A stretch of 64,000 bases of DNA from the IMG/VR virus record IMGVR_UViG_2537562001_000004; one strand, 5' to 3'. Each line of letters starts with the position of its first letter. Position 1 is the first letter of the stretch. Positions 2,610 through 48,231 of the stretch are shown piece after piece. The stretch is from a virus. The translations under genes were made by a program, and so were the position numbers. The notes beneath the pieces were generated by a model. The model was not told the DNA's origin. It ran no database searches and saw nothing but the letters and a program-made list of their open reading frames with translations.

Positions 2610-3600
2610 CCAAGGAATTGGTTCTTATTTTAATTACTAAATATGCCTCGGGTGAAGCGATTAATTTGTAATAACTCACAATGATAATAAATTAGTTAAC
2701 AACTAACGAGGATGAGAGGGGTTTCCTCTCTTTAAGGGTAATAAGAAGAACGGTGGGCAACTCGAGTCCCCTTAGTAGGTTCCTGCCTTTAAAGATGGGA
2801 AAACATTGGAAATATCGTTCACCTAAGGAACGTACATATACAATTGAGATACGAAAGAGGAGGAAATGCACATTTCCGATCTCTTTGAGTCTACAAAGGT
2901 TCTAGTCACTCATTCAATCCCCCCTTTTTTTCTTTGCAGGCTGAAAAAGGTAAGTTTGTAGGGGATGAAAGTCTAAAATATATTTTAACTCGTCAGTAAT
3001 ACGTGAAATATCAGACCTCGAAATACTACTGTTAGTTGATCTGGAAGTTCTCCTTGCAGAGAGAAGCACGAATAAGCGTTATTTTTATCTGGTTAATAAT
3101 TATTCTTTGAAAAGAGAATACGTTTTATGGGAATTGGTGACAAATTCATCATAGCGTGCTCATTATAATAAACTTTACTCGGTGACGCGGAGGTTAGAGG
3201 GGATAGGAATTCCGCGAAAAGAAATGTGTTTTTTGTCAATAGATGAAAATTTAGAAGAGTTTTTAAAATAGATATAGGTGATTATACATCTTCATTATTC
3301 TAAAAAACAGATTTCGTTTCTTACAACGCTGCTGTACGTTGAAAGGTGTGGAAACACCAAATTCAAGTGAAGATTTATTTACCAACAATTTAATATTTTA
3401 TGCTGACTTGGAAGGAGTTTCCTTCCTTTGAGCGTATGGCAAGGTGATATTGAAAATCCTAATTCAAATTCATGTACCTATTCTTTTGCTGTACGTTGAA
3501 AGGGATGGAAAACACCCAATTTTCTTTTCCTGTTTATTTCTGAAAGACCTTATTTTGTTAATCAAGATAGGGTCTTTCCCCTGTTTTAAGAATAGTCATT
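2610..3600 (+). ncRNA. Copy A of a large modular structured non-coding element. Modules are M1 (about 2676-3090), M2 (about 3090-3300), a half M3 (3328-3359), a full M3 hairpin module (3410-3516) and a terminator-like hairpin (3548-3590).
   Basis: It is conserved with copies at 12792-14295, 19215-20340, 47222-48100 (-) and 56070-56950 (-). It contains many short perfect hairpins (ggaaatgcacatttcc; agtctacaaa paired with tttgtaggct; ggaaggagtttccttcc; ggtgtggaaacacc). There is no conserved ORF: a 31-aa ORF with a ribosome-binding site exists only in this copy. Confidence 0.6.
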
Positions 3601-3639: not shown

Positions 3640-4660
3640 GAATGCATACAGAATGAAACTCGTTGTAGTTGAAGTTATTCAATGGTTCAAGGGAATGGAT
3701 GTTTGATGGTGTTATTTGCATGAAAATGCTGACAGATGATTCTGAAGCCGGTGGATTGTATAAAAGCATTGAATGTAACTATTCTTCCTTTGAGATATGA
3801 AGATGATAACCGTAAATTGATTGTTCAACATCCTTGCTGGGGGTGGATTGAAACACTTCGAAAAGACCTATGAACTTACAGATGAGATAGCGCAGATGGT
3901 TGAGCAGGAAATGGAGCAGTCGAAGAAAATGGGAGAAGATACGGAGTGAGGAAGGTGGAAACTCAATTAGTGAAACTCGTTCGTGATGAAAAAGGAGATG
4001 TGCTTGAAATTTAGGTGGGAGAAACAGTTTTTTCGAAAGATGGAGTTATAAAAGAAGGGGAGCGAGAAATGATGAATGGACTTGAAATGTATGTACACCA
4101 AATGAACGCATGAATTAAAGAACAAGAAGCAGGAAGAGAACAGATTGTAGCTACGATTGAAACGAGTTCAGAACTTGTTGAGAAAAATAAGAAACAGTTA
4201 TAGTTATAATGGCTAGATAAAAGATTTGAAGCTGCAAAGCTAGAGTTTGAAGAATGGGTAAAGGAACATATTCATATTTTAGATAAGATGCATGAGTGAG
4301 AGAAAAAGAAACTAGATAATAAACGAACAATTGCTATAACTTTTGATTGATTATTTAAGGTTGTTAATGGTATTGTAAATTTTCTAGGGCAAGAATCTAT
4401 TAATGAAGAGCTGACAAACGCTACGTTACGATGGACTATTTAACAGCGGATATAATTGAACGTGAGCTGAATTGGAATACGGCAGTAATTATGTTACTAC
4501 CAGTAAAACAAAAAAGTATTATGGATGCTAAAACAGATGTCTTTTGTGGTGTGTTACTTCAATTAGCAAAAGAATATGGTATTCCATGTTTAGATTTAGG
4601 AGAAGATTTGTTAAATATCCCTGCTGATTTTAATCTGATAAAATTCATTTAAATGGCGAA
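3640..4660 (+). pseudogene. Decayed phage genes. This includes a homolog of the 185-aa zinc-ribbon protein (44460..45017) with in-frame TGA and TAG stops.
   Basis: The 4070-4200 translation MMNGLEMYVHQMNA*IKEQE.. and ORF 4431..4652 (MDYLTADIIERELNWN..) align to the MMNKHEIYVRQMNAWIKEQE and KEYLTADAIQQGSLKSG segments of ORF 44460..45017. Confidence 0.5.
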
Positions 4661-5289
4661 GGATATAAGTTTTTAGCTTCTAAAATTGTGAGCTTTGTCA
4701 TGAATGGCGCTTGTCTATACCTAACAAAAGTATCTAATAGTTCATTATAAATTATAGAACAGATGGATGGCAACTTTTATCCGAATTCTTCGCAAACAAG
4801 TGGAGATACAATTACTGCCAATATAAGTGAGATTCGCTTTTTAGAGGAAAAATGTTACTTATTCCAAAAAGCGGTTAGCATACCATCTTATTCGATAATA
4901 CATCTCAAGTAGATTGTATATTTTATGGATTGGATTTTAAACCATATGGAGAGATTATGATCAAATGTATGCTCATTAGATACGATGAAATGAAAGTTAT
5001 CTGTAAAAGAAACTTAATTGAAGTGGAATGTAAGAAACTCACGAAAGTGAGCTTTTTCTATTGGATGAAAGTGAAAAAATAATTAATATTAATAGGATAT
5101 GGTTAATTATTACAAAATACATCGTAGATTTATCAAAATGGAATGACAATATTTATTGGGATGTGGTTAAACCCCATAGCTATCAAGCTAAGCTTATGCA
5201 AAGTCAATTTTAGGCGAGATTGTTTCTTTTTTCTAAAGAGCAAGTGTAGGTGTTTGAAAGATTTGCATACGAAATAAACCCTAACGGGT

Positions 5290-6765
5290 TTCACTTTTTT
5301 GAATTAAGCGGCTTGATTATCAGACATGGTACAATTGTAAACGACACCTAATATATCAAAGATCGTTTTTTTATCATATCGATGAGATTTCCACCCATTT
5401 TGCTGTAGGAGATTGAACAGGCGAAGTAACACCTTTGATAGCTCTTGGGTGTTTTGTATAGTTTGGAATAGAAGAAGAAAATAGTCTTTAATCATATATA
5501 TGGCTTTATACTCACTAAGCTCTCGTTTTTTCTTCATGAGGAGCAATTGGCGCATTTGAAACATGATAGAAGAACAGAGTAGAATGGCAATCAATTGACC
5601 ATATAAATGGCACTCCAATCGTTCTGGTTTTATCTTTTTACAATGATGGATTTGAAAGAATGACTTCCACGTTTTAAATAAAATTTCGATTTGCCAACGC
5701 AAAGAATACCAGTCATGTACCTGTCCCATCGGGACAATATCTGTAGGGGTGTTTGTCATATATACATTGATACCACTGAGCCGTTTACTACGAGGAGAAT
5801 ACTTCATTCCTTTCTTTTTTTCTCTTACAGCTTGATCTTGTAATCGTTTTTGTTGCTGTTGTTTTGTTAATCGGTGAATAATTACACGAGCTGGCACTTT
5901 ATCAATCATTCCTACTAAGCATCAGCTATTTCACATGTTTGTCCTGGTTGAAGGGAGCTCATTAACGTCTCCATATCTATCTGTATATACTCTGTACCTT
6001 TCGTAATTCTTCCGTTTTGAAAATAATTAGGGTTAGGATTTTTTTGATACATACGTGTATTCGACTTGATACGAGAGATATAGTAGGCCTCTTTATCTTG
6101 TATATATTGAAGGTCTTTTAAATGAAAATAACCTAAATCTCGGATGCATAAATCATTCGCTGTCACAGTTGGGGCACACAGAGAGCCGTAAGTGCGATCA
6201 TGTTGTTTACCTGGGCCTGTATGAATATGTAGGAACTGTCCACTTAACAAATCATACTCAAGTTGAATTTTTATCCCAGCTGTATGGCTGCACCCTCCTG
6301 CACCTGGATAAACCGATGAAAATACATCTGGGAGTTGAAATGCAGTTGAATCTAAAATACGAATACGCTTGAAAACAGAAGTGTATGGAGAAGAAATCGG
6401 CATAGATGTGGCCAATTTTTTGCTTAGTAGTTCGGCTAGTAGGCGTTGTAAAAGTTGGACGGCTGCCTTATTAAATCGTTGATTCAGTCCCTCAGGACTG
6501 ATAAGTACTTCTGTTGATGCTTCTAAACAGCTAGATAACTGAGTTAAAGAAGTCATAGCTACATTTTGGCTCACCCATACACATAAAGCTACTAAATCTT
6601 TTGCTTGGTACTTACTGGTTCGTTGTACAAAACCAACATCTCTAGCAAGATCCCGTAAGGTATTTGGAGATAAAAAACTTTGAATCTCTTGAGCAAATAG
6701 TTGTAATTCGTCAGACACAGAAACAGACATAAAAAACGCCATCCTTTCCTATGATTCTACAAAAA
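5290..6765 (-). mobile_element. IS4-family (IS231-like) insertion sequence. Its transposase is split by a stop or frameshift near 5910.
   Basis: ORFs 5915..6742 (275 aa) and 5304..5909 (201 aa) together make about 477 aa. The C-terminal [12 protein letters not shown] motif is typical of IS4-family DDE transposases. The element ends were not mapped. Confidence 0.6.
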
Positions 6766-6857
6766 GAATAGCGTATTTTGTGAATTATGAGTATAAATTC
6801 ATCTAAATTTTAACTTTCTAGCTTACTGAAAAAATAATCATAGACTGGAAAAGCTTT

Positions 6858-7697
6858 TTAATTATAAATACGAACATTTTTTATAGATAAATTTACACAT
6901 TCTACAGAAATTTGATACCCTAGCCAACATTGAGCGATATATTCAAATGATGAAACAGAACCTGTTGTAAAAAAGCGATGCTTAGAATTAAGATGCTCAG
7001 ATAAAATACCTTGATGTTGTAAAATAGTACTTAACTCTATTGCTGTTTCTTCTGCTGAACTAATAATAGAAACATCTTTCCCTAGTTCTTTTATTATATA
7101 TGATTCTAAAAGTGGATAATGGGTACAACCAAGAATTAAGGTATCTATGTCTTCTTTATTTAATGAAGATAAAGCTTGTTTAACTTGCTGTTCTACATAT
7201 ACTGTATCATCTAATCGATTTTCTACTACTGTAGCTAAAGTTGGACAGGCAAGACTATGTACTTCTAAATTTGTATGAAGTTCCTGTAAAGCTTTTGCAT
7301 ACATATTAGAATTTATGGTACCTATAGTCCCAATTACTCCAATCTTGCCTTTCTTTGTTACTTTAATTGCCGCTCTTGCTCCTGGATGTATAACTCCAAT
7401 AACCGGAATAGGAAGTGATTCTTTCAGTGAGAACAATGCAGCAGCCGCACCAGTATTACAAGCCACAACAAGAGCTTTTAATGGGAATTGTTTGAGGAAT
7501 TCAACCATTTCAAATGTAAAAGATTTAACTTCTTCTACACTTCTTGGCCCATAAGGACAACGCTTATTATCACCAATATAGTAAATACTCTCTTTTGGCA
7601 ATTGTCGCATAATTTCTTCGACAACTGTTAATCCTCCAACTCCTGAGTCAAGTACACCTATTACGGAATTTTCATTAGCTAAATTCATATATTTCAT
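6858..7697 (-). CDS. murI: glutamate racemase
   Basis: A 279-aa intact ORF with the DSGVGGLTV, ACNTGAA and LGCTHYP motifs of MurI/RacE. Confidence 0.9.
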   Translation of the reverse strand: MKYMNLANENSVIGVLDSGVGGLTVVEEIMRQLPKESIYYIGDNKRCPYGPRSVEEVKSFTFEMVEFLKQFPLKALVVACNTGAAAALFSLKESLPIPVIGVIHPGARAAIKVTKKGKIGVIGTIGTINSNMYAKALQELHTNLEVHSLACPTLATVVENRLDDTVYVEQQVKQALSSLNKEDIDTLILGCTHYPLLESYIIKELGKDVSIISSAEETAIELSTILQHQGILSEHLNSKHRFFTTGSVSSFEYIAQCWLGYQISVECVNLSIKNVRIYN

Positions 7698-8555: not shown

Positions 8556-9711
8556 TGGAAAAAGTAGATGAGATGTACGAAGTTCACCACAATATAAAGT
8601 GGAAAGTGATTGAGATGAAAAAGGATGGTTATTCAAATCGTATCATTATGGAAACACTCGGAATTAAAAATGTTTCCCAAATTAAGACATGGATGAAATG
8701 GTATCGTACAGATCAAACATATCGTTTTCAACAACCTGTAGGAAAACAATATTCTTATGGAAAAGGGGCAAAAGAGTTAAGTGAATTGGAACAGCTACGA
8801 TTAGAAAATAAACATTTAAAAACAAAATTACTTGTATGGGGAAAGTATATGGAAATCGAAAGGAGCTGAAACCACATACCGTTATCACTCTATGGAATGA
8901 ATTAAAAACAAAAGTAACCGTACAAGAACTGTGTAACATATTAGAATTACCACGTTCCACATTTTATCGTTGGTTACAGACAACAGAACGCCCTAAAGAC
9001 GACATAGAAGAGAAAGTAAAGACGGTCTGTTTTAAGCATAAATTACGATATGGGTATCGAAGAGTGACCGCCACTCTTCAAAAAATGGGGCTATGTGTCA
9101 ATCATAAAAAAGTATTACGAATCATGAACAAATACCACATACTCTCGAAAGTACGTCGTAAGAAAAAGAAATATATCAATGGTGCAGAACCAGTTGTAGC
9201 TCCTCATCGATTAGAACGTCAATTTGAAGCGTCAGCCCCAAATGAAAAGTGGTTTACGGATGTAACGTATTTATTATTTGGAGAGCGTACTTTGTATTTA
9301 TCAACGATTATGGATGCCTTTAATCGCGAAATTATAAGTTATGTCGTCAGTGAATCACAAACGCTGGGATTAGCGATGAAGACGTTAAAACAAGCAATGA
9401 GAGGAAGAAAAATAAAAGATGTCCTCTTTCATTCAGATCAAGGAAGTACTTATACTGCGAAGGAATTTCAAGCGTATGCCAAAGAAAAAGGCATTATCAC
9501 CAGCATGCCCCGGAGAGGAAATTACCATGATAATGCCGTCATGGTAAGCTTCTTTTGTCATTTAAAAAGTGAAGCTTTCTATTCACAAAAGATAACAAAA
9601 GTATCCAACACAACTGTGCGAATTCAAGAAAAATTAAACCACCTATCCCCTAAAGAATTTAGGGAACAGATGGTTTAGGTGTTTTAATAGGTGTCCCTTT
9701 TTCAGGGTTCA
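8556..9711 (+). mobile_element. IS3-family insertion sequence, copy 1 (orfA about 8555-8869, orfB 8836..9678). OrfB carries an internal deletion relative to copy 2.
   Basis: OrfA is a helix-turn-helix protein (KWKVIEMKKDGYSNRIIMETLGIKNVSQIKTWMKWYR). OrfB is an rve-type DDE transposase (HSDQGSTYTAKEF..NYHDNAVMVSFF). The right end ..cagggttca matches copy 2 at 41401. About 12 codons (IVLEYIHYYNRV) present in copy 2 are missing here. Confidence 0.75.
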
Positions 9712-12791: not shown

Positions 12792-14295
12792 GGCTCTTTA
12801 ATTTTGTTTAAATGACTAAGAACAACTAATTTGTAACTACTCACGATAATTAATAATTTGTTAACAACTAACGAGGAGGAAATGACGGCGGGTGTCGCTT
12901 TAAAGGTTGTGTATAAATTCCCGGGCTTGTAGCGGGATCTCTACACATTTCCTATCTCTTTGAGTCTACAAAGGTTTCAATCTTCTTTTCCCTTGTAGGC
13001 TGAAAGGGGTGAAAGGTCAGTAGCGTGTGAAATTCTAAAATATAGTTAATTTGTTAATAATACGTGAAACCTGAAACCCAAAACTCAAAATTCCTACTGT
13101 TAATTGTTCGGGAGTTTCTCCTAGCAAAGAGTAACGCGGATAAGCGTTATTTATTGTCTCATTAATTAAACGATGGTCAATATAAGTTCTTTGAAAAGAA
13201 AATCTGGGGATAGCGTGCTCATTAAAACAACGTTACTCTGTGACGCGGAGGTTAGAGGGGATAAGAGTTTCCCGGAAAGAAAGTGTGTATTTTTCGGTGT
13301 TAAACGAAAAATTAGAAGTGTTTTCGAAATTGATGTATGTAAAAATATAGGGCTGGATAACAACTCCACAAGACATATTACTTATCGAACGATATCAGGG
13401 GAAGGGTTTCCCTTCCTTTGAGCGTACAGCAAAATGAAATAATACACGATGATTGAAGGCAACTTGCTGTGCGTTGAAAGGTGTGGAAACACCATCCCTT
13501 TTTTGCAAAACAAACTGTATTTATAATTACATTTTTCTGATAGAAAGCTTTGTTTCCCTAAGACAGAGGTTTTTATCATTTGAGAGTAACTAATTAGTTG
13601 CTCATTTTTTTATGTTTTTTTCATCAATAGATGAAGAAATAGCAGCGTTTTCCAGCTGGATATATGTGATTATATAAGCGTGAATAACAATCTATACATT
13701 CACTTTAAAATTCATGTTGTTGGGAGGGTTTTCCCTTCCTTTGAGCGTACAGAAAAGGTTAAGATTCTTATGTATCCGTCTATCAATCATCTTACCGTTC
13801 GTCCTGCTGTACGTTGAAAGGTGCGGAAAACACCATAAAGAAGGTTTGTTACATTGTACTCCTGATAAAGTTTATGCTTGATAAAAAGTCCTGTTTCTAG
13901 ATTGGAGAACAGGACTTTTTGTTTTATTACAATCCTTTATATAACAAGGTGTATAGTGAGTTCCTCTGATTGTTACAGTGGTTGGTACTAAGTAAGAGTG
14001 ATCAATTGGTTTCTACTTTTTCGTTAATAGATGAAAAAATAGAAACGTTTTCGAAATAGGCTTACGTAATAATATAGGTGTGGATGCGCTTCCACATTTT
14101 GTTTGAATCACATATTGTTGGGAAGGGTTTCCCTTCCTTTGAGCGTACAGCAAAATTAAACGGTTCCCTTCAGTTCCTTCACTGATTCTGCTGTACGTTG
14201 AAAGGTGTGGAAACACCATCCCTATTGTGCACATTGTAATATAATCTGATAGAAAGCTCTGTTTGTATAACAGGGCTTTCTATCGTTTAAGAGCA
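12792..14295 (+). ncRNA. Copy B of the large structured element. It has M1 (12792-13130), M2 (13130-13370) and three M3 hairpin modules (13398-13494, 13722-13836, 14120-14219). Each M3 is followed by a terminator-like hairpin (13538-13575, 13873-13915, 14252-14285). The third is also followed by a box motif at 13945-13990.
   Basis: Same module order and sequence as copy A. The M3 units repeat at about 330-400 bp spacing with partial M2-tail repeats (cgttaatagatgaaaaaatagaaacgttttcgaaa) between them. The loops differ between units. Confidence 0.6.
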
Positions 14296-14365
14296 ACTAA
14301 ATGGTTGTTCTTTTTGTTGGATAAAGCAGAAATTTAAAAGTTAAAAGATTATAAGGAGGAAAAAT

Positions 14366-16060
14366 GTGATTACTGAACTATATGTAAATGTTATTGATTT
14401 TGGTGCGAAAGGTGATGGAGTTACAGATGATACAGTAGCTATTCAAAAAGCCTTAGATAACGGTGGCGAGATATTTTTTCCTGCCGGAACATATGTAGTA
14501 AAAAATACGCTGAAATTGAAACAATCTAATACTAGATTATTTGGTGATAAAGGAAAAACAATATTAGATTGGTCTAAAGCATCTTCTGTTTTTAATACCA
14601 TCGGAGCGGAATTATTCCAAGTGTATGGAACTAAATCATCTGCTATTAAATTAACTACAGATGTATTAAAGGGAAAAGGACTGGGAAATGTTACAAACGA
14701 TTATCCAGGGCATCTTGTTGTTAAAAGGTTTGACTATGAAATCGAAGTAGCTTCTACAGAATCTGTTAATGACAATGATTTGATTTTAATTACCTCAGAT
14801 TTTATGTGGATAGATGATGCTGTTGAACATCAGCATGGTGAATTAGCTATTGTTTCAAATACTGTTGATTCTACAATATTGAGATTATCAAACCAATTAC
14901 ATGAAGATTATTTAACAACTAAAGCAGCGAGATACCATAAAATAACACCTATTGAAAATGTTGTAATAGAAGGATTAACATTTAGGGGGCATGATTACAA
15001 AGATAAAGTAAGGGGAGATTATGGCTTAATAGTTAAATATGGTCGAAATATTACTGTACGTGATTGTAGCTTTAAATCTGTCGACCAATGTTCTGTTGAT
15101 TTTATTAGTGTATATAATGGGTGTATTGAGAATTGTGATTTTTATCATATGTATACTAAGCCTAAATATTATATTCAATATGCATCTAAAGTTTCAAATG
15201 CATCTATGTTTATTAGAGTTTTAAATAATAACTATATAAATGGTAGACACGCTGTTGTAACTGGACATACATTGTATGAAGATTTGACGAAACCCGCAGA
15301 ATTAAGAGAACGTTGCCCAGGTATTCAGCGACATATTTTAGTTGAGGGTAATACAGCATCAGGATATTGGCACGCTGCATATAGTACACATAATTCCTCA
15401 GAATACGTTACATTTAAAGATAACTGCGCATTGCACTGTGATAAAGGATTTGAGTTGCGATGTAGATTAGTGGATGCTGTAGGGAACCATATACAGCATT
15501 GTCGAGTAGGATTCAATTTAACTGTACGTCCTGAGTATTTACAAATATCGAAGAATACACTTGTTGATACGGATTTATCTATTTATGCGAAAACATATAA
15601 AGAAGGATTCAATCCTAAATCTATTATGATTAGTGATAATTATCTTCTAAATACTACGGGAACAGGTATTGCTTTAAACTTTACTGATTGTCCTGGTATT
15701 GTAAAAGATATTGTAATTACACAGAATCGCATTGTAGATTGTGTAGCAAACACATATGCACTTCAGGTATCGGGAAAAGCTGAATGTGTAATTACAGGTA
15801 ATATAATTAGAAATATTTCGAATTTTGTTATTTCTCTAAGAGGTGTTATTAATAGCTGTGTTTCACAGAACATTGCTTATGATGCAGATACAAAGGGCAT
15901 GTTTTATTTAGTAAATGGTACCGCTTATGCTGCTGCGGGCAATGTTATCCGTGATAATTTTGCCTATAATTGTTACAAAGGTTTAATAGAAATGAATGCT
16001 TGGGGAGGTACAACAAACACAATTTCTCAGAACTACAATAATGGTGTGTTAGTTCCTTAA
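14366..16060 (+). CDS. Right-handed beta-helix (pectate-lyase fold) protein, likely a phage tailspike, depolymerase or pre-neck-appendage-like protein
   Basis: An intact 564-aa ORF. The N-terminus (VIDFGAKGDGVTDDTVAIQKALDNGGEIFFPAGTYVV) is typical of pectate_lyase_3 and tailspike beta-helix proteins. There is a ribosome-binding site (aggagg) upstream. Confidence 0.6.
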   Translation: MITELYVNVIDFGAKGDGVTDDTVAIQKALDNGGEIFFPAGTYVVKNTLKLKQSNTRLFGDKGKTILDWSKASSVFNTIGAELFQVYGTKSSAIKLTTDVLKGKGLGNVTNDYPGHLVVKRFDYEIEVASTESVNDNDLILITSDFMWIDDAVEHQHGELAIVSNTVDSTILRLSNQLHEDYLTTKAARYHKITPIENVVIEGLTFRGHDYKDKVRGDYGLIVKYGRNITVRDCSFKSVDQCSVDFISVYNGCIENCDFYHMYTKPKYYIQYASKVSNASMFIRVLNNNYINGRHAVVTGHTLYEDLTKPAELRERCPGIQRHILVEGNTASGYWHAAYSTHNSSEYVTFKDNCALHCDKGFELRCRLVDAVGNHIQHCRVGFNLTVRPEYLQISKNTLVDTDLSIYAKTYKEGFNPKSIMISDNYLLNTTGTGIALNFTDCPGIVKDIVITQNRIVDCVANTYALQVSGKAECVITGNIIRNISNFVISLRGVINSCVSQNIAYDADTKGMFYLVNGTAYAAAGNVIRDNFAYNCYKGLIEMNAWGGTTNTISQNYNNGVLVP

Positions 16061-17818: not shown

Positions 17819-18723
17819 AAGTTTTCTCCTCTATAATTAATGATTTTTTAAATATTTCAGGGGGAATATACCATAATTTAAGCGGGACAAAGAGTTGGAT
17901 GGGTGCGAAGGGGGATGAAATGAGAGAATCTGAGTAATAGATAATAAAAAATATTCAGGACTTAAAGGGAAAAGTTCTGAATATTTTTTGTGAATATCCG
18001 TAAACATCAATTTCAATGAATGCGATTGTCAAAGAAATAATATCATAATGGCTCAGTGTGTAGTGGAGTGTTTTTTTTGTTAGATGAAATAGTACATCAA
18101 TTTATGATTTTACATTTGTGATACTCTTCCCGTATGGAATATAGTTATGTTAATTTCTTACCCTAAGTAGTATCCCTTTTGTGAGGTTTCTCAATGTATG
18201 GAGAGCTTTTTATTATGTAAGTGAATAATATAAAAAGAGCTGACTCTCCATATGAGAATCAGCTCTTTCTTTGTGTCTCGGTACCCTATGTCATTTCCTA
18301 TCTTACAACTTATGATAAACCATAATTGTACTAGTAGGTTCGAAGAATATAATAACATTATATTTCGATTGGAAAAGGGTTTTATTTTCTTTGTTAAATG
18401 AAATTTTATATAGTTTTATAATGCGTTTCATGAGATTATAATATTGATTAAAGGATTTCCTAAAGAGTCATAGAAATATGATGCTTTTGTATGTTGGGGT
18501 ATTAGTTGTTTACAAATCATTCTGTTAGGGTAATATAAGTATACAATTAAATCATTCGACAATGTTTGTATAATTTCTTTATTAAATGAAATTATAAATG
18601 GTTTTGTATGCTGTTTTTATGAGATTATAATAAGGTCATTGAATATATGTTATGTGCCTGTTTTTCCGTATACCCTAATTAGATGGCCCCCAACAGTAAT
18701 GTTGAGGGCTCTTTTTTGTTATA

Positions 18724-18797
18724 TGGACCTTGTAGGACTCGAACCTACGGCCGAACGGTTATGAGCCGTTTGCTCTAACCAGCTGAGCTAAAGGTCC
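18724..18797 (-). tRNA. tRNA with anticodon CAT (Met or lysidine-Ile2 type)
   Basis: The reverse complement ggacctttagctcagctggttagagcaaacggctcataaccgttcggccgtaggttcgagtcctacaaggtcca folds as a cloverleaf with a 7-bp acceptor stem and a CTCATAA anticodon loop. A terminator hairpin lies downstream and a conserved R4 promoter-like region lies upstream at 18798-18990. Confidence 0.85.
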
Positions 18798-19214
18798 GAT
18801 ATTTAGAGAGTAAAAGCACTCTTTCGAGTGCTTTTACTCTTGTTTGGATCCGATAACCTGTAATGTTTTCCAATACGATGACATAATGCATAAAACATAG
18901 CAACAGCTTCAAAATTAATATACCAGATCATAAAGAGGATAGTTTTTTTATTTTTGCCTCATTAGATAAATTTTTAAATAGTTTTAATAATGATTTTCTC
19001 AAGAATCATAGAAAAACCTTCGATACTTTGTGTGTGTCGGTTTTTTCCTGTGCAAGTACAAATAAAAAAAGAACCAAATGTCAATGTGAGAATCAGCTCT
19101 CTTTTCGTGTCTTGACACTGTACTTATCATTATAGATTGATTAAAGAATGCATATATTTTCTTTATTTAAGAAAATCGTAGTATTGAATTTATAAATTCT
19201 TTTAATTGTATTTA

Positions 19215-20340
19215 TATAACGTAAGCTACAGGAACTTACATATACAATCGAGACACAAACAAGAAAGGGATAGGAAATATACATTTCCTATCCCTTTGAG
19301 TCTACAAAGGTTTCACTCATTCAATCACTCCTATTATCTTTTTGTAGGTTGAAAAAGATAATAGGTCAGTGGCGTATGAAAGTCTAATAAAAATATCAAA
19401 CCGTCAATAATACGTGAAATATCAGACCTCGAAATACCACTGTTAATTGATTTGGGAGTTCTATTTGCAAAAAAATAGCGTAAATAGGCATTATTTTTTG
19501 TTGAATTAATTAGTCGACAGTCAATTAGTGTTCATTGAAAAGAAAATATGTTTCATGAGATATTGTGTTCATTATAATAACGTTGCTAGGTGATTCGGAG
19601 GCCAGATGGCATAAGAGTTTCTCGAAAAGAAGATGTGTTTTTTCGTCAATAGATGAAAATTAGAAATATTTTCGAAAGGTGTATTTGTGTTATGTTTTAG
19701 GTGAGAATAGTCATGTGAAAGATGTCTATTCTAATTCAAGAATGTTTAAGGGCCACACAGAGGTTATCTTAAGTGTTTTTGACGACAATTTAATATTTAT
19801 GCTGACTTGGAAGGGTTTTCTCTTCCTTTGAGTGCACAGCAAAACGAATGTATCCGTTTTGCTGTGCGTTGAAAGGTGCGGAAACAACATAAACATTATT
19901 CACTACATTATGGTTTCTGATTTGATAAGAAGTCCTATTTTCTAAATTGGAGAGCGGGGCTTTTTATCGTGTATACAATATCTCATATACAGAGGCGAAT
20001 AGTGAGTTTCTTGAACAAAAAAACGCTTCTATTTTTTCGTTAATAAACGAAAAAATAGAAGCGTTTTCGAAAAACATTTCTGTAATAATATAGATGTAGA
20101 AGAAAAATTTACAATAACATCCTAAATTTCTTTGTTTTCGTAGGGAAGGTTTTCCTTCCTTTGAGCGTACAAAAAGCCAAGGAAAAAAGGCGATTTTGCT
20201 TTGCTGTACGTTGAAAGGTGCGGAAAACACCAAACTAGGGCAGCTTACTGTTTATGATACTTTATCAATGTAATAAATTTATTAAAAAGCCCTATCATTC
20301 ATAAAGATTAGAATGATAGGGCTTTTGGTCACTTAAGAGT
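19215..20340 (+). ncRNA. Copy C of the large structured element. M1 is truncated at its 5' end. There are two M3 modules (19809-19888 and 20143-20231) and terminator-like hairpins (19920-19965, 20285-20328).
   Basis: Same module order. The first M3 has a short loop of about 20 nt. A box motif is present at 19975-20010. Confidence 0.55.
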
Positions 20341-20377
20341 AGCTGAAAGGTTGCTCTATTTTTATGAGAAAAGGAGA

Positions 20378-20523
20378 ATGATGGGCTGAAGGAAATACTG
20401 TCTATTATACTCCTTTTCATTCTGGTAGTAGGTTGTACAACTTTGATTATTGACACATTCAAAGTAATTCGTGAAAAACGTGTTGCTGATAGGGTGGTTG
20501 AGAGGGAAATGGAGCAATTGTAA
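20378..20523 (+). pseudogene. Small single-transmembrane phage protein, paralog of 45014..45178, with a stop at its third codon
   Basis: atgatgggctga..., then EILSIILLFILVVGCTTLIIDTFKVIREKRVADRVVEREMEQL. It sits after an M3-terminator unit, as do the intact paralogs. Confidence 0.5.
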
Positions 20524-26085: not shown

Positions 26086-27201
26086 TTATTTTTTTCCTAT
26101 TCTCCCCAAACTATCTTTAATAGTGGTTTCCCCCAGTTGAGTGTATAATAAAGCTGTATCTTGACTAGTATGCCCAAGTTGCTGCATTACTTGTAACGAG
26201 TCTTTTTCTTCCATATATAATTTATTTGCTAATGTATGTCTTAATTTATGAGGAGACATTCTTTTTCCGAATGATTTAGTATATTTTTCTACTATATCCT
26301 GGATAGCCCTAACCGAAAGAGGTTGTGCAGTATGTTTATATTTCGATAAAAATACATTTTTTAATTCTTTTCTTGGAGCATATTTGCTATCTCTAATTTC
26401 CATATATTTTTCAAGATCATTCAATGCAATTGGGGTAATCCATACTGAATCTTCTTTATTTCCTTTGCGGATTACATCAATTAGTCTTTCTTTTAGGTTT
26501 ATATCCTCCATACGAAGATCGGCTAATTCACTTACACGAATACCACTACCAAGAAAGAGGGAGAGGATAGCTACATCACGATCTTTATCTCTTAGGAAAT
26601 AGAACAACTGATGTTTTGTTAAAGATTTTTCATGTTCGTACTTAACGTAATTCAAAAATTCTTGATCGTCATCATTATGGAATATTTTAGATCTCATACG
26701 TTTCGCACGAGCATTTAATGTTTCTTTATCTTTATGTATTTCTATTTTAGCCATGACATTTCTATAAAAATAACATTCTCCATCATCATTTTCTGATAGG
26801 GAGGTAAGGTACTTAAATAAAGACTTTAAGGCCGAAATTTTTCTGTTAACAGAGGAATTCTGCATGTTTTGTTGTAGTTTTAGAAACCTTATAAAGTTCT
26901 CAACATCTTTTTTCTTTAAATTCTCCAAATCAGAGAAGGATATGTCTTTTATGGGTTTCAATTCAATAATTTGTTCAGATAATAACCAATTAAAGAAGAC
27001 TCTGAAATCATATACATAATTCAGTAGGGTGGAGGGAGAGGCATCATGCAATTCTTTGTACTCCACAAATTCTTCTATGTAAAAGGGCATTTCATTTAGA
27101 TTTTCGTATAATTTCTTACGATGTACGGATTTTTGACGTTGCTTGCTGTAATCCATAAAAATCACCTCATCTATACTATAACAGAAAAAACACACGAACA
27201 C
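26086..27201 (-). CDS. Tyrosine site-specific recombinase (integrase), intact
   Basis: A 371-aa ORF. The C-terminus has a catalytic R..HxxR..Y arrangement (KLRHTLANKLY...LGHTSQDTALLYTQ). It lies in an AT-rich island (23600-29500). Confidence 0.7.
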   Translation of the reverse strand: MFVCFFCYSIDEVIFMDYSKQRQKSVHRKKLYENLNEMPFYIEEFVEYKELHDASPSTLLNYVYDFRVFFNWLLSEQIIELKPIKDISFSDLENLKKKDVENFIRFLKLQQNMQNSSVNRKISALKSLFKYLTSLSENDDGECYFYRNVMAKIEIHKDKETLNARAKRMRSKIFHNDDDQEFLNYVKYEHEKSLTKHQLFYFLRDKDRDVAILSLFLGSGIRVSELADLRMEDINLKERLIDVIRKGNKEDSVWITPIALNDLEKYMEIRDSKYAPRKELKNVFLSKYKHTAQPLSVRAIQDIVEKYTKSFGKRMSPHKLRHTLANKLYMEEKDSLQVMQQLGHTSQDTALLYTQLGETTIKDSLGRIGKK

Positions 27202-29278: not shown

Positions 29279-29849
29279 ATTCTCTCATCCTTCTCCTATA
29301 TATATAATAAATTTTTTTGTCTAAAAGGTAGTTTAAAAATCTCATCTATTTAAAGAAAACATACACGCTATTTTTGAGATTGCTACCTTACTCTTATTTG
29401 TATAATCTCATGATATTCATATTTAAAACGATGAGAATTTTCTTTAAATAAGGAAAAATTAATATCTTTTTTGAAGTACATAGAGATTTGAAATACTTTA
29501 TTCCTTATATAAACAAAAACGGAATTTGCAACCAAACTGCGTTTTTTCAACATACAATGAATTACAAAAATTATTCATTGTTGATCAAATCATTGGCATT
29601 ACAATAATACCTGGTTCTATAAAATTCACTCGGATTTTATCTCTACCAACCTCTACAGCCGCTGATTTAGATAAAACACGAAGTGCACCTCTATTAGATG
29701 TATATGTTGCACATGACATCTTCAAATTGTGTTTCTAAGTAAGGTCTTCATTTTGGCAGGCATATTTGAAATGGTAGAAAGGCTGAAGGCTCGAAATTTC
29801 CTTTTAGTAATCACATAATCACGTTATTTCTCATGCCAAAATGTATAAA

Positions 29850-31630: not shown

Positions 31631-31736
31631 CAATTATGGAGTTTGAATTTCAAAAAAATTATAGAATTAGTTCCTACGTTAAGGGGAATTTAAGCAAAAA
31701 AGGAACTCAATAGATTGTTTTTTTCATTAACGGACC

Positions 31737-31810
31737 TTTAGCTCAGCTGGTCAAAGCAAACGGCTCACAACCGTTCGGTCATAGGTCGAATCCTACAAAA
31801 TCCATATAAC
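31737..31810 (+). pseudogene. Degenerate tRNA(CAT)-derived pseudogene
   Basis: ggacctttagctcagctggtcaaagcaaacggctcacaaccgttcggtcataggtcgaatcctacaaaatcca. The acceptor and T stems are broken and the anticodon has mutated to CAC. Confidence 0.55.
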
Positions 31811-34090: not shown

Positions 34091-34728
34091 CCATCACTCT
34101 CCTTTTCACAAAAAATAGAGAAATCATTTGATAACTCTTACTTAGCGCCAGCCACCGTAACGATTAGAGGCACTCACTATACGTCTTGGTATATGAGATA
34201 TTACATAAAATAAAAAGCCCTGTTCTTCAATTAAAAAAACATGGCTTCTTATCGGAATTGCTTATATTATTTTATGGTGTTTCCACACCTTTCAACGTAC
34301 AGCAGATTGTGAGTCAATTCCAAATAGTGAGCGCCGGTTTTTTGATACTATCTCGCTATACGCTCAAAGGAAGAGAAATCCTTCCCCGTATATGAAGTTG
34401 CTAGTGAAGGCGCAAATTCATTTCCAACACTTGCATTATCACATAAAGCTATTCCCAAAAATGTTTCTATTTTTTATTTATTGGCGAAAAAACAGGTCTT
34501 CTTCCAGACCCCTTAATCATCTGATTACTTTTGATATAGAAAAACCCCCAATCATTTTGAGTCTTTAGAATGATTGGGGGGGTGAAAAAAACAGAGAGTT
34601 TATATAAAATGGGAACGTTATGAATGTTATATCCACTTATTCACTCTCAAACTTCTTCCAATCGCTAAATACCATATATTTAAACATTAGTAATTAATCG
34701 GAAGAATACTCGGGTAACTGTGAACCCG

Positions 34729-34833
34729 TGGTGTTTTCCGCACCTTTCAACGTACAGCACGAGAGAGGAAAATATTTCTTGAAAGGTGCATCTATTAACC
34801 TTGCTGTACGCTCAAAGGAAGGGAAAGCCTTCC
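34729..34833 (-). ncRNA. Isolated M3 hairpin module, reverse orientation. A partial M2 lies at 34900-35040.
   Basis: ggtgttttccgcacctttcaacgtacagca-[loop]-tgctgtacgctcaaaggaagggaaagccttcc. Confidence 0.5.
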
Positions 34834-34958
34834 TATTCAGCGTAAAATATTAAATTTTCAACAAGAATACTTAAAATAACCTCCGTGTCATCCTCAATTA
34901 TTCTCACTTAAAAAATATCACAAACACAGCTTTAAAAATACTTCTGTTTTTTCGTATA

Positions 34959-38498: not shown

Positions 38499-39679
38499 GT
38501 GAGAACCTCAAAAAGAACACTCGTTTGTGCACACCACAGAACTAATGTTCTGTTTTTTTAACAATGAATTGCTAGTTTCACTTTTGTGAGGAATTTATGA
38601 AGGCATAAAAAGCCCCCGAATACTAAACATCGGGGGACTCTAAAGGTAAATAGGAGAAAAGACCGTAGAGGGGAACCTCTACAATTAAAATACTACATAA
38701 TAATATATCGTAAGCACATATTATCATAATTTTCTTATTCCGAAACATTAAAATTTTCATTGAAGAACGAAAAAATACTACTTTTCATTCACTCAACTTA
38801 TGTTACAGTTCCCTATGTTAGCAAATAATAATATTTTCAAAAAGAGGTTATTACATGAGTTATGATACTGTGCATCGCTACAACGTATGCAACAATTAGA
38901 ACAAGAACAAGCAGCAACTGGGAAACCTTTAGTATTAAAAAGGAGAACTCCTAAATTGAATATTATTATTGTAATAACTTTTTTATTAGCTGTTCCAATC
39001 CTTACACTTTCTATATTGATATGGGCCACTTATTTTTCAATCAAAGAATTTATGACTAAAACATATTTATTAAAAACGTAGCTACAGGTGAACAATTCCA
39101 TGTAGAAAAACAGGACTTCAAACAATATAAGAGGAACTTTAAGAAGAAAGAAAAACAAGTGAGAAAGATATCTGACTTGTAATAAAAGGAGAAAATTCGA
39201 TGGATGCAAAAAAACAAGAAAACAAATTGCAAGATAGACAACTGAAATATGTACTCAAAAAATATATTATTTCTGGTAAAGATTTTGATCCAAATAACAT
39301 TAGAACACAAGAAGAAATTACTGATATTCAAGAAGGGTTTGATAAATTTCATAAGCTTTCTGAGGAAGAATTAAATGAACTATTTCTTTCTATTAGAAAC
39401 GGCACTTACAAACTATAAGGTAAAAACCCTCAATTTACTTGAGGGCTTCTCATGGGAGTCTTGAAGAATTCATTTAACCATTATCATATTCCCATATAAT
39501 ACATCGTTAAAACAATAAAAAATTTCCCTTAATGACGAAAAATTACATAATCCAATTTATCAACCGCATGATAAATTATCCATGCGCTGTTGTTTTATAT
39601 GCATTATGTCATCGGATAAGAAAACAAATTACTTAAGTCACTCAAGAAAAAGCACTCGAAAGAATGCTTTTTCTCTGAA

Positions 39680-39753
39680 CGGACCTTTAGCTCAGCTGGT
39701 TAGAGCAAACGGCTCATAACCGTTCGGTCGTAGGTTCGAGTCCTACAAGGTCC
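39680..39753 (+). tRNA. tRNA with anticodon CAT (Met or lysidine-Ile2 type), intact
   Basis: ggacctttagctcagctggttagagcaaacggctcataaccgttcggtcgtaggttcgagtcctacaaggtcca. The acceptor GGACCTT pairs with AAGGTCC. The anticodon CAT is at 39714-39716. No CCA is encoded. A conserved upstream R4 region lies at 39452-39679. Confidence 0.9.
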
Positions 39754-41400
39754 ATAAATACCTTGTCATTCACATCAACTTGACAAGGTATATACTAAGA
39801 AGTAAAATAACTATCCGTGTAAAAACTTGGTTTATACACTCCATTGTGAAAGATCGGGTTAACACCAACAACTTTCATGACATTCTTAATTGTGTTTATC
39901 AAGGATGTACATCAGAGCGGTTTAACAAGTGGTAATAACGAAAGAGATAGGGCTCTAATATAGTTAACAATTTGCGTGAACTGCATTACTCAAAATGACA
40001 TCTAAACAAACAACAAAAAGACATCTTCAACTGGGGAAGATGTCTTTTTTATCAAAACTAAAAACCAACATTTTTTCCTTTGAAAAAGAAAAAATATATC
40101 ATTTGAATTTTCATTTCACACATATAATATACTTAGACGTTCCGAACTTCTAAGTCAAAAATCACCTTATCGCAATGGGATTTTTTTAAAAAAGCGTTTT
40201 ACAGCGGACCATAAAATAAAAAAGAAGCCTCCACCATCATATTCTAATGACAGTGGAGGCTTCTTTTTTGTGTGTAAATCTCAACAGTCTAGAATCATAC
40301 ACTTTAGGACATAACGGAAGAACAAAAACTGGGAGAATTCATTCTAAATACATCGACTTGTAACTATAATCTCATAAATCCAACACGAAAAGCGATTTAT
40401 TATTTCCTTTAATAAAAGAAATAATAAATCTCCGTAATTCCGAATGTAGTTATATACTAACATTATAAATTTATTTTGACCTACTTTTGTTTTTGTAATG
40501 TCATGACATACATTGTTTGATTAGGATTCGCGCCTTTTCAAACAACAAAAAATCCCCGAAACTCACACAGAGCATCGGGGATTTTTCTATGATTCTTGAG
40601 GAAATCATTTAATCACCATTATAATCTCATAAAATACATCGTTAAAACTATATGAAATTTCCTTTAATACAGAAAAACAAAGTATGGTTTGGCCATTATG
40701 CTGTGATAAGCTTTAAGTGCATACATAAAAAGTTGGAATAAGCAATTAAGATGTCTGATTGGGAAACGAACATCTTAAAGAACCTCAGCAACAGAAAAAG
40801 CCAGAACTCAAATTGAGTCCTGGCTTTTTTACATTTATACAATCACATAGAAAAGGCTCCCAACCGTACAATTGGGAACCTTCCGAGGGAGAAAAATAAT
40901 ATAGATAAAAATAAAGTATATGTCAATTCCAATAATGGATTCATAAATATCATCTCACAAAAGTATCATCTAAGATGATTGAAATTTGCCTTTATATGAG
41001 AAAATAAAGATTTCTAATTCTAAAGATTCTATGATGTATTTTGTATTGCAAAGACGGGAATTGACATCTAGTACCGTGACACGAAGAAAGAGCTTATTCT
41101 CATGTGGAGATTGGGCTCTTTTTTATTTCGTAAGGTTATATAACAAAAAGAGCCCTCAACAGTTTTGTTGAGGGCTCTCTAATTAGGGTATACAGAAAAA
41201 AGAAACACATGACATACATTCAATCGCATCATCTCACAAAAACAACATTCAAAATGATTGAAAATTTCCGTTAGCCCAGAAAAAAATAGTACCCCTATAC
41301 ACTAATGCATTATGATAATATTTATTTGACAATCGCAGTCACAGAAAATGTATGTTTACGGATATTTATAAAAAAAGAACCAGAACTCTTCCCCTTGAAG

Positions 41401-42472
41401 TGAACCCCGAAAACGGGGCACCTATCAAAACACCTAAACCATCTGTTCCCTATATTCTTTAGGGGATAGGTGGTTTAATTTTTCTTGAATTCGCACACGA
41501 TTGTAGTAATGAATGTATTCTAGCACAATCTTTCGCACAGTTGTGTTGGATACTTTTGTTTATCTTTTGTGAGTAGAAAGCTTCGCTTTTTAAATGACCA
41601 AAGAAGCTTTCCATGACGGCATTATCATGGCAATTTCCTCTCCGGGATATGCTTGAAATTCCTTCGCAGTATACATACTTCCTTGATCCGAGTGAAGGAT
41701 GACATCTTTTACTTTTCTCCCTCGCATTGCTTGTTTTAATGTTTTCATCGCTAATGTTAAAGTTTGTGATTCACTGATGACATAACAAATAATTTCACGA
41801 TTAAAGGCATCTATAATCGTTGATAAATACAATGTGCGCCCTCCAAATAATAGGTAAGTCACATCCGTAAACCGCTTTTCATTTTGGGTTGATGATTCGA
41901 ATTGACGTTCCAATCGATGAGGGTCTACGACTGGTTCAGCACCATTGATATATTTCTTTTTCTTACGATGCACTTTTGAGAGTATATGATATTGTTTCAT
42001 AATCCGTAATACTATTTTATGATTGACACATAGCCCCGTTTTTCGAAGAGTGGCGGTCACTCTTCGATATCCATACCGTAATTTATGCCTAAGGCAGACC
42101 TTCTTTGCTTTCTCTTCTATCTCGTCTTTAGGGCGCTCGGCTTTCTGTAACCAATGATAAAATGAGGAACGTGGTAATTCTAATACTTTACACAGTTCTT
42201 TTATGGTTACTTTTGTTTTTAAATGCTTATTTTCTAATCGTAGCCGTTCCAATTCACTTAGCTCTTTTGATCCTTTTCATAAGAATATTGTTTTCCTACA
42301 GGTTGTTGAAAACGGTACGTTTGACCGGTGCGATACCATTTCATCCATGTCTTAATTTGGGAAATATTTTTAATTCCAAGCTTCTCCATAATGGTCCGAT
42401 TGGAATACCCATCCTTTTTCATTTCAATCACTTTCCACTTTACTTCTTCTGGGTAATGAACTCTTGTTTTCA
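41401..42472 (-). mobile_element. IS3-family insertion sequence, copy 2 of the 8556..9711 element. OrfB is frameshifted by a deletion of about 27 bp.
   Basis: ORFs 42258..42533 (orfA) and 41590..42252 (orfB) are 85-90% identical to copy 1. The deletion removes AKEKGIITS and shifts the frame at ..AKEFQAYPGEEIAMIM. Confidence 0.7.
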
Positions 42473-42507
42473 AAACAAAAACACCTCCATTGAATTTGCA
42501 TACTAAT

Positions 42508-45017: not shown

Positions 45018-45238
45018 TTATCGCTCCTTTGTTTTATAGCCTTCAATTGCTCCATTTCCTTCTCGACCATCCTTTTAACATCACGTTTTTCACGAATCAC
45101 TTTGATAATGTCAACCATCCAATTTGTACAACTTGATACCAGAATGACAAGGAATATAATGGACAATATTTCTCCCATCCCACCACTCTCCTTTTCACAC
45201 AAAAATAGAGCAACCAAACGGTTACTCTTGTATAGCAA
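45014..45238 (-). CDS. Small single-transmembrane protein, probably 54 aa starting at the ATG near 45178. Resembles a type I toxin or holin.
   Basis: The ribosome-binding site aaaggag lies 8 nt before ATG GGA GAA ATA. MGEILSIIFLVILVSSCTNWMVDIIKVIREKRDVKRMVEKEMEQLKAIK. Paralogs lie at 45981..46202 and 47001..47198. Confidence 0.55.
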   Translation of the reverse strand: MLYKSNRLVALFLCEKESGGMGEILSIIFLVILVSSCTNWMVDIIKVIREKRDVKRMVEKEMEQLKAIKQRSDK

Positions 45239-48100: not shown

Positions 48101-48231
48101 ATACCAGCAGGTTTGCTAGGATGCCTTATCGACTCTTTAATCATAAAATACTTATTATCAGTGTGATTCCTTTGTTTTTCCCTTCTTTTTTCGCATTTTT
48201 TCCGTCATTTCGCTCTTTTCCACCTCTATTC

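Follow-up and report, generated by a model that had tools for sequence, protein, structure and literature searches.

A three-hairpin module recurs along the window

The 64,000-nt viral DNA stretch analyzed here (IMG/VR record IMGVR_UViG_2537562001_000004; referred to as the window) carries a tail-spike-like beta-helix gene at 14366-16060 (+), assigned by Pfam and by phrog_7458 tail spike (E 5.8e-53). Three tandem units of a hairpin module of approximately 100 nt lie upstream of this gene, at 13398-13495, 13721-13836, and 14119-14219 (all +). The spacing of the units was 323 and 398 bp, which agreed with a first-pass annotation of the same sequence. No paralogue of the beta-helix gene was found in the window by tblastn.

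The module consisted of three hairpins, P1, a long P2, and P3, whose helices abut without a linker. P1 reads GGAAGGG-UUU-CCCUUCC, and P3 reads GGUG-(U/C)GGAAA-CACC. P2, UUUGAGCGUACAGCA ... UGCUGUACGUUGAAA, comprises 15-17 bp with an invariant G.G mismatch, and encloses a loop of 16-48 nt, measured between 17-nt arms as defined here. A hairpin, a long imperfect stem with one G-G mismatch, and a second hairpin were also the anatomy claimed by the first-pass annotation. The 17-nt 5' arm, TTTGAGCGTACAGCAAA, gave 23 matches in the window (both arms, both strands, up to three mismatches), compared to 0.18 in shuffled sequence. By pairing the arms, we obtained 13 complete copies and one orphan 3' half at ~3302-3360 (+). 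Thus, all 13 copies listed previously were present at the coordinates and on the strands reported for them, whereas the fourteenth that had been counted was the truncated one, comprising only the 3' arm (exact at 3330-3346) and P3.

A covariance model of the module, R1, was built from 19 copies, and bit scores below refer to it. The full P1-P2-P3 module is termed type D, and types A and B are related forms. The trio scored 96.6, 82.1, and 105.1 bits, the last value being that of the unit nearest the tail-spike-like gene. On the plus strand, further D modules were located at 3408-3518 (78.5 bits), 19807-19890 (76.3 bits, with the shortest loop), and 20142-20233 (74.7 bits), and the truncated copy at 3302-3360 scored 26.5 bits. 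On the minus strand, they were located at 34274-34387 (83.1 bits), 34728-34835 (87.8 bits), 45319-45420 (100.9 bits), 46376-46478 (97.3 bits), 46789-46893 (100.8 bits), 47292-47409 (83.1 bits), and 56196-56309 (82.6 bits); in the last of these, P3 was broken by an insertion.

The P1 loop (GUUUCC) was complementary to the P3 loop (GGAAAC) in all copies, for example at 14127-14132 and 14210-14215. With this complementarity, the two loops could kiss or the whole module could fold into one extended hairpin, which was the predicted minimum free energy fold in 6 of 13 copies. The pairing potential for loop kissing or an extended-hairpin switch is thus present, in loops that hardly vary.

Pairing is maintained on one strand

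Folding of the copies on both strands was used to examine the proposed structure. The folding energies lay 3.0-7.0 standard deviations below those of dinucleotide shuffles (z -3.0 to -7.0; -5.48, -3.32, and -5.08 for the successive units of the trio), and the forward strand folded better than the reverse complement in 11 of 13 copies. We also aligned 29 distinct copies, taken from the window, prophages in IMG/VR, soil metagenomes, and plasmids of Bacillus. In this alignment, 93.6% of the cells at paired positions could pair, compared to 43-59% when the 3' partners were slid by 1-3 columns. Changes on both sides were observed in seven pairs, and the observed values were reached by at most 1 of 500 shuffles. 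RNAalifold independently recovered P1, P2, and P3.

In the conserved part of P2, the substitutions were compensatory or G.U-compatible on the given strand only; the G.U-compatible changes would read as C.A mismatches on the opposite strand. Compensatory changes included U-A to C-G at 19827, as seen in the pair table, C-G to U-A at 46390, and GAGC/GUUG to GAGU/CACUG in a Bacillus thuringiensis plasmid copy. A.C cells were confined to the loop-side end of P2, where the few other mismatches adjoin them. The G.G mismatch was present in 29 of 29 copies, and the adjacent G.U wobble in 27. On these comparisons, the module behaves as a structured RNA at work on the strand that had been named for it. 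The recognition role suggested with that structure is supported by the strand-specific G.U pairs, the compensatory changes, the orientation shared with the genes, and a position ~50 nt behind an extended -10-like motif, described below.

The first-pass annotation had also considered an array of double-stranded protein-binding sites. We rejected this candidate, as the spacing between the arms ranged from 16 to 48 nt and complementarity was kept via wobble pairs on one strand only.

The lower helix of P2, GAGC(C)G../..C(G)GUUS with A-U, G.U, and C-G, recalls the AGC triad of group II intron domain 5, which we take to be a probable coincidence. The sites at the helix base so likened were 14141-14148 with 14195-14202, and 3724-3731 with 3785-3792 in prophage locus L008, representing the D and B types. 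Domain 5 is a 34-nt hairpin with a 2-nt bulge and a GNRA loop, and only its lower-helix sequence was similar; the module has no bulge, its loop is long and variable, and no Rfam match was obtained, so domain 5 was rejected. Hammerhead, CsrA-sponge, and Y-RNA identities were also rejected, as their anatomy does not fit and Rfam gave no support.

The P2 loops diverge like linkers

The P2 loops had been described as hypervariable and unrelated. The mean pairwise identity was 0.86-0.90 for the arms, 0.48 for the loops, and 0.53-0.61 for the linkers and outer flanks. Because the loop identity was near that of the linkers and flanks, the comparison indicates loops that are unconstrained and drift like linkers, at a neutral rate, and that are not hypermutating. 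Nor were the loops unrelated: those at 14138 and 45334 were ~94% identical, several shared an AUUAA... start and a ...CUCAC..AAUC end, and loci L001, L004, and L005 had one common loop class.

In another explanation, the module would be a constant protein-docking scaffold with a freely diversifying loop; the tandem cassettes would then encode either trans-acting guide-like RNAs, whose loops address different nucleic-acid targets, or RNAs that form multimers via the P1 and P3 loops. Loop 12-mers had 32 exact matches in the rest of the window, compared to a mean of 21.8 and a maximum of 38 for shuffled loops, and concatenated loops gave no BLAST match in the phage collection or the plasmid collection. 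A guide or antisense role of the loops was, therefore, rejected. These tests covered identical 12-mers within the window and matches that BLAST can detect in two collections, and are weak ones for the scaffold as a whole, which we consider highly improbable. Its multimer variant can be likened, by analogy, to phi29 pRNA or to the ROOL and GOLLD RNA cages, with GUUUCC and GGAAAC as the interacting loops. The loop at 46390 showed a 9-nt complementarity, judged by eye, to the start-codon region of a small membrane peptide gene, which was not repeated in other copies. C/U-rich loops of "anti-Shine-Dalgarno" appearance were limited to some copies.

The module lies between a promoter-like element and terminators

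Alignment of the flanks showed that the module is part of a larger cassette. The order was an upstream terminator (GACGAAAGGGCAACTG..GGTTGCTCTTTT), a promoter-like element, a 5' hairpin, the module, a variable linker, a terminator termed T1, often a second terminator termed T2, and the ribosome-binding site (RBS) of the next gene. The hairpin module that had been described as the repeat unit is thus real, but the repeat itself is much larger, including the promoter-like element, the 5' hairpin, T1, and T2 as well.

The promoter-like element consisted of an ATGAAT/ATGAAA box and an extended -10 (TGTGAWWAT-like), with no -35. The extended -10-like motif was found 43-53 nt 5' of the module in 17 of 29 copies. 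In the first unit of the trio, it was TGTAAAAAT at 13338-13346 (+), 51 nt 5' of the module, and in the second, a motif class scan identified TGTGATTAT at 13665-13673 (+). A scan for sigma-70 -35/-10 sequences predicted no promoter at the element. The 5' hairpin lies at the putative transcript start, as in the third unit at 14079-14096 (+), where the flank alignment and an inverted-repeat scan agreed. Its sequence differed among copies with the pairing retained, as judged by eye on the alignment.

All 13 copies in the window had a terminator-like hairpin that began within 120 nt downstream on the same strand, as had 26 of the 28 copies that could be assessed in total, compared to 19 of 150 random window positions. 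This confirmed that each copy is followed by a terminator-like hairpin, and the coordinates given for these hairpins by the first-pass annotation agreed with ours. In the first unit, T1 was located at 13543-13573 (+), at +48 to +78 (dG, folding free energy, -8.7), and T2 at 13584-13603 (+), where the inverted-repeat scan assigned it to the AAGAGYAAC..GTTGCTC class with a T-run. T1 of the second unit was at 13881-13922 (+) (dG -19.6), and T1 of the third at 14252-14280 (+) (dG -15.8), followed by T2 at 14289-14312 (+), ~40 nt 5' of the RBS of the tail-spike-like gene. Overall, T1 fell into at least three unrelated sequence classes, and T2 into the AAGAGCAAC..GGTTGCTCT class with a T-run. The linker between the module and T1 was 22-96 nt and unconserved (identity 0.53).

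T2 ended 10-40 nt before the RBS of the next gene. It adjoined the RBS of a small membrane peptide, the tail-spike-like gene, and a 93-aa late protein, which is the first late protein of prophage L003. No sigma-70-type promoter was predicted between T2 and the downstream genes, and there was little room for one, so that these genes would be transcribed only by read-through.

The membrane peptide that followed several cassettes had 53 aa and one hydrophobic helix (MGEILSIIFLVILVSSCT..KVIREKRD..). Its genes were at 45028-45190 (-), 46028-46180 (-), 47039-47175 (-), and 20349-20520 (+). Strong sigma-70-like antisense promoters (TTGATA-16-TATAAT) were located inside the peptide gene at 45133-45160 (+) and 46121-46148 (+), facing T2 and T1. 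This gene with its backward promoters resembles a type I toxin-antitoxin layout. As the order of RNA, terminator, and open reading frame (ORF) is also shared with type III toxin-antitoxin systems, a ToxI-like antitoxin RNA was considered and rejected; the downstream genes vary (membrane peptide, tail-spike-like, HNH, and 93-aa protein), and none is of the ToxN/AbiQ type.

Just 5' of the promoter-like element of several cassettes, we observed an element of ~95 nt, GGGATAGCGTGCTCATTATAATAACGTTACTCGGTGACGCGGAGGCTAGAGGGGATAAGAGTTCCTC, at 47531-47628 (-), 13210-13300 (+), 45520-45601 (-), and 56420-56500 (-), and at 2501-2597 in prophage locus L216. It was 93-95% identical in ~38 Bacillus mycoides plasmids and lay ~75 nt after an intact ArpU gene in pBWB401. 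It may represent a regulator-binding region, an RNA, or the remnant of a gene. In addition, three promoter-like elements (ATGAAT..ATGAGATTATA) without a following module were found at 51113-51130 (-), 40621-40639 (-), and 29403-29420 (-), suggesting that this promoter type is more widely used in the replicon.

The arrangement of the cassette bears on two explanations that assign the module another task than one in transcription of the downstream genes. In the first, the terminated leader would itself be the product: the promoter, module, and T1 would form the gene of a small RNA, an "RNA moron" at the hot-spot for morons that separates the late regulator from the late operon. Its RNA of ~200 nt would act in trans via the conserved scaffold, which might, for instance, bind or sequester a protein, and read-through would be incidental or brought about by another factor. 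Even in tandem arrays, every module comes with a promoter-like element, a 5' hairpin, and a terminator of its own, and the T1 classes are unrelated, so that termination as such is what is conserved. Early termination of a late transcript has a precedent in the small RNA StxS (PMC7547250). However, the loops showed no excess of complementary matches in the window and no BLAST match in phages or plasmids, and the hairpins of the wider family sit in long leaders without their own terminator directly behind. We regard this explanation as doubtful but worth serious consideration, and return to it below.

In the second, P2 would serve RNA processing or stability, either as a cleavage site for an RNase specific for double strands or for structure, for example RNase III, or as a 5' stabilizer that sets the half-life of the late mRNA. 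Conserved RNase III sites occur in early RNAs of the Bacillus phage SP82. A helix of 15-20 bp with a conserved non-canonical pair and a free loop, at the 5' end of long operon transcripts, would fit such a role, as would the second conserved hairpin, T2, which lies directly before the RBS in relatives. Nevertheless, this role leaves the terminators behind every copy unexplained, and P1 and P3 with their complementary loops would be superfluous for an RNase III site. We therefore judged it unlikely.

The cassettes belong to phage late operons

In the intact-looking prophages L006 and L003, the module lies between the gene of a 135-aa Ltr-superfamily regulator (Sigma70_r4/DUF1492; phrog_36) and those of HNH, TerS, and TerL; HNH and Terminase_4 were the downstream assignments in these two loci. 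The setting is, therefore, that of an ArpU/RinA-type late unit, with an Ltr-family regulator upstream and packaging genes downstream. Ltr/ArpU proteins activate late operons, with the binding repeats and the late promoter situated directly after the regulator gene (PMC3753634). Phage phi4B1 and plasmid pBWB401 have annotated ArpU genes.

In the window, ArpU-family (TIGR01637-like) pseudogenes lie 5' of three clusters. One is a frameshifted late-activator gene at 48215-48582 (-), detected in two frames by tblastn with phi4B1 ArpU (E 5e-20), which lies 5' of a leader with A, B, and D modules. The copy at 56.2 kb precedes decayed HNH and TerS genes and a frameshifted TerL, as found by tblastn. 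At 45.3 kb, the genes behind the copy are those of the membrane peptide, a 185-aa zinc-ribbon protein, and HNH. The window is very repetitive, with diverged paralogous units, and long ORFs are sparse. All modules follow the local gene direction, converging on the GC-skew switch. The sequences indicate that the cassettes lie downstream of ArpU-family late-activator genes in decayed Bacillus cereus-group prophages, and that copies persist in units captured by plasmids as well.

Several further observations concern this setting. TerL was split over frames, ArpU genes were frameshifted or contained stops, and IS3-type and IS4-type transposase genes interrupted a putative late operon after the HNH gene. 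Sites of decay or insertion sequences were 53357-54906 (-), 48215-48582 (-), 57029-57373 (-), 41590-43710 (-), 5304-7697 (-), and 8836-9678 (+). A 371-aa XerS tyrosine recombinase gene (26086-27201, -; NF003462, 451 bits with a cut-off of 267) lies at the peak of the cumulative GC skew. The skew changes sign at ~22-28 kb, and the orientations of the genes and repeats converge there. From these three features, the window appears to span a replication terminus/dif region. Two tRNA-Met genes and one tRNA-Val gene were located in diverged repeats, at 18724-18797 (-), 39681-39754 (+), and 31732-31804 (+). The repeat pairs bearing them were 18722-18907 with 39586-39756, and 31695-31806 with 39643-39756, which suggests that elements have repeatedly been integrated or duplicated at tRNA sites.

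In one prophage group, a convergent 45-aa hydrophobic ORF lies 3' of the module (L006, 7860-7997, + in the locus and antisense to the late direction; L064, ~5000-5140). An RBS of its own and a bidirectional terminator accompany this ORF, and a TATAAT promoter close by would drive transcription of a short overlapping RNA, making this unit a candidate type I toxin-antitoxin moron.

Related hairpins occupy the leaders of other ArpU phages

Weak R1 matches led to two more module types, A and B, in the same leaders. Type A comprises P1, UUUAAGGG..CCUUUAAAG, and a P3 with a GAAA loop, and type B comprises P1 followed by CUCUUUGAGU..GCUGAAAGAG. A-type modules were located at 47913-48006 (-) (33.6 bits), a distant three-hairpin relative that blastn and alignment showed to be homologous to the phi4B1 leader, and at 2712-2809 (+) (33.4 bits), supported by alignment. 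A search for hairpins with the base motif revealed B-type hairpins at 2884-2946 (+), with a UUUGAGU/GCUGAAA base and a different upper stem, at 12959-13005 (+) in the leader upstream of the trio, at 19295-19354 (+), and at 47802-47864 (-), which coincided with a weak R1 match at 47792-47887. In phi4B1, the order is ArpU, promoter-like element, A, B, a T2-like terminator, and terS. The P1 and P3 loops of the A-type modules were also complementary, via other sequences (UUUC/GAAA in the window and UAUUC/GAAUA in phi4B1).

The wider family was searched with a UUUGAGY/GYUSAAA base plus at least five of six further pairs. The window contained 17 such hairpins, all co-oriented with genes. Among 47 prophage loci with TIGR01637-type ArpU, 23 hairpins were found in 20 loci, 23 of them on the ArpU strand and 0 on the other. 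Their upper stems fell into ~10 unrelated, self-complementary sequence classes on a common base. In this sequence comparison, the helix is kept and the P2 covariation across the family is strong, the base motif being fixed by the search itself. The D module was found in 3 of 80 prophage loci with sigma-r4-type ArpU.

Between ArpU and the first late gene, spaces of 700-950 nt without an annotated or convincing gene were observed in many Bacillus cereus-group prophages, such as L254 (3364-4320), L216 (2430-3280), and L008 (3340-4020); in the hairpin-bearing TIGR01637-type loci and in pBWB401, the space was given as 850-950 nt. They contained conserved blocks (e.g., ...CTCCCAGTCACCGAACACAGGGCGTGTAGCC...) and one or two UUUGAGC hairpins, and ended in a terminator-like hairpin in L254 and phi4B1. 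Such a space looks like a large structured leader RNA. Permissive scans of Rfam yielded no family for the phi4B1 or pBWB401 leader.

At gathering thresholds, Rfam 15 detected only the three tRNAs in the whole window, and permissive scans of two module regions gave matches at chance level only. BLAST with the module gave no match in 50,697 phage records; of plasmids, 14 records matched, all from Bacillus. Pattern scans of species-representative genomes gave 0 matches and then one chance match, in a Chlorobi-type metagenome-assembled genome. No paper on the element was found in literature searches by related topics, not by sequence. It is best filed as a phage leader RNA 5' of late-operon terminators, without a match in Rfam 15 and of putative function.

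The uniform orientation argues against a role of the module in DNA. A DNA-level element could be a MITE (miniature inverted-repeat transposable element), an attC-like site, a cos/pac or other protein-binding site, or an origin or promoter in single-strand DNA. Points in its favor are the imperfect palindrome that the module forms, with arms of ~30 nt, an extended hairpin that rivals the three-hairpin fold in 6 of 13 copies, and the many copies in one replicon. By analogy with other HNH-terminase phages, cos/pac sites are expected at the position of the module. On the other hand, all 17 hairpins of the window and all 23 of the ArpU loci share the orientation of the genes, and pairing kept by wobbles on one strand only, across an arm spacing of 16-48 nt, is foreign to such an element. 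We place very little credence in this class of explanation.

Its individual members fared no better. The MITE proposed in the first-pass annotation was rejected, as a search of the flanks revealed no target-site duplications (the longest shared words were 2-6 nt, at no consistent position), and no copy stood apart from the larger homologous cassette, in which the slot was always the same. The recombination site proposed there was also dismissed. The sole full-length tyrosine recombinase found in the window was XerS, not IntI, with 53.9 bits on the integron-integrase model TIGR02249 (cut-off 265), and the copies face both ways, towards the skew switch, which does not suit an integron attC. Finally, 77 of 80 related prophage loci lack the module, which is, therefore, not their packaging site.

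A putative antitermination unit at the head of late operons

The module lies between the promoter-like element and intrinsic terminators on the transcribed strand, the placement of an antiterminator. As a tentative proposal, which we hold with less than even confidence, the promoter-proximal leader RNA and its terminators would form a late-operon attenuation/antitermination unit. RNA polymerase would start at an activator-type promoter (extended -10, no -35) downstream of the ArpU-family late-regulator gene; the identity of this promoter and its timing are inferred. The 5' hairpin would be transcribed first and the module from ~+40, presenting a P2 base with the conserved helix 5'-UUUGAG/5'-YUGAAA and the invariant G.G next to the G.U wobble. 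Polymerase would then reach one or two intrinsic terminators ~20-100 nt past the module. The late genes would have no promoter of their own and be reached by read-through only. The conserved helix base and the P1 and P3 loops may be the docking site for a factor that makes polymerase resist termination, and the presumed partner would be either the polymerase, in the manner of put RNA, or, in the manner of nut, a factor from phage or host. Termination at T1 or T2 would set free a stable, structured RNA of ~200-260 nt from the leader, and the P2 loop would be a free spacer.

A put-like antitermination RNA or an attenuator had been among the candidates of the first-pass annotation. The structured RNA placed 5' of terminators stands, whereas classical attenuation does not, as no alternative pairing with T1 or T2 was found. 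A classical attenuator or riboswitch was rejected for this reason, and also because the module is constant while T1 falls into unrelated classes, and conservation resides in helices, not junctions. Since a constant module has no alternative pairing with varied terminators, control would have to be processive, like that by put, nut, conAn2, or canT. Cis-acting RNA antiterminators are known from Gram-positive mobile elements, namely conAn2 (PMC8191782) and canT (PMC11658703).

Several results weigh against this proposal. Without a conserved alternative pairing between the module and T1 or T2, processive action is argued by analogy only. The covariation within the D clade is thin, because its arms are so conserved. 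The 77 sigma-r4-type ArpU loci without the module include at least 16 that keep a T2-type hairpin 30-40 nt before the late RBS, so passing T2 cannot depend on the module in every case. A T1 of its own accompanies almost every module, which suits an RNA gene with a defined 3' end equally. Furthermore, the arms are conserved where the downstream late genes have decayed (TerL and ArpU pseudogenes), which hints at a function independent of those genes.

The absence from 77 of 80 loci, the module's own T1, and the arms kept beside decayed genes favor the explanation in which the terminated leader is a trans-acting small RNA. The module is accessory, and protein-coding morons and a type I toxin-like cassette fill the same intergenic slot in relatives. 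The trans-acting RNA and the cis-acting leader are compatible and not exclusive.

Comparison with known systems

The antitermination proposal finds its nearest likeness in HK022 put RNA (putL/putR), a stem-loop RNA of ~70-100 nt just 3' of a phage promoter and 5' of intrinsic terminators. In put, helix features outweigh loop sequence, and there is no alternative pairing with the terminator, as in the module. However, no sequence or structure match was seen; put comprises two stem-loops and acts in early operons of a Gram-negative lambdoid phage. The module, whose activity is putative, is missing from most related phages, which keep the terminator.

The short transcript of lambda pR'-tR' (6S RNA) and StxS (PMC7547250) similarly are late-promoter-proximal and end directly before the late genes. 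These late genes have no other promoter, and the terminated leader can be a functional small RNA. In lambda, however, read-through needs Q at a DNA site rather than a leader RNA structure, whereas an ArpU/RinA-type activator lies next to the module. We know of no Q homologue in module-bearing phages. The leader described here also differs by its conserved three-helix module, which is often in tandem.

The RNAs conAn2 (pLS20; PMC8191782), canT (Tn916; PMC11658703), and EAR (eps) lie in 5' leaders of long operons of Gram-positive mobile elements and enable polymerase to pass several terminators. They are orientation-specific and cis-acting, and conAn2 regions share little sequence between plasmids. 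In contrast to the module, conAn2 and canT are regions of 260-600 nt (EAR is shorter), they serve conjugation or polysaccharide operons, and no motif in common was seen. ConAn2 works with the protein ConAn1, and nothing comparable was identified next to the module.

Listeria LhrC1-5 are multicopy tandem small RNAs with units of similar size, each with its own terminator. In LhrC-type RNAs, conservation falls on the loops, which hold the seed motifs, and the stems are variable, whereas in the module, the stems are conserved and the loop is free.

Implications for late-gene control

How polymerase enters and passes through the 20-kb late operons of Gram-positive temperate phages is known only to the extent that an ArpU/RinA-type activator is required. 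Many Bacillus cereus-group phages have terminators directly before the first late gene, and a sizeable subgroup puts a recurring type of hairpin, with a non-canonical G.G and a G.U in an invariant helix base, 5' of those terminators. Should read-through be under the control of this hairpin, the hairpin would become the first antitermination element made of RNA to be described for Gram-positive phage late genes, and would explain how plasmids wire captured genes, such as the tail-spike-like gene and the small membrane peptides, to late expression. Were the terminated leader the actual product, it would represent a new family of phage/plasmid small RNAs, 13 copies of which lie in one replicon. 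In both cases, the module offers a short, mutable, and testable handle on late-gene control.

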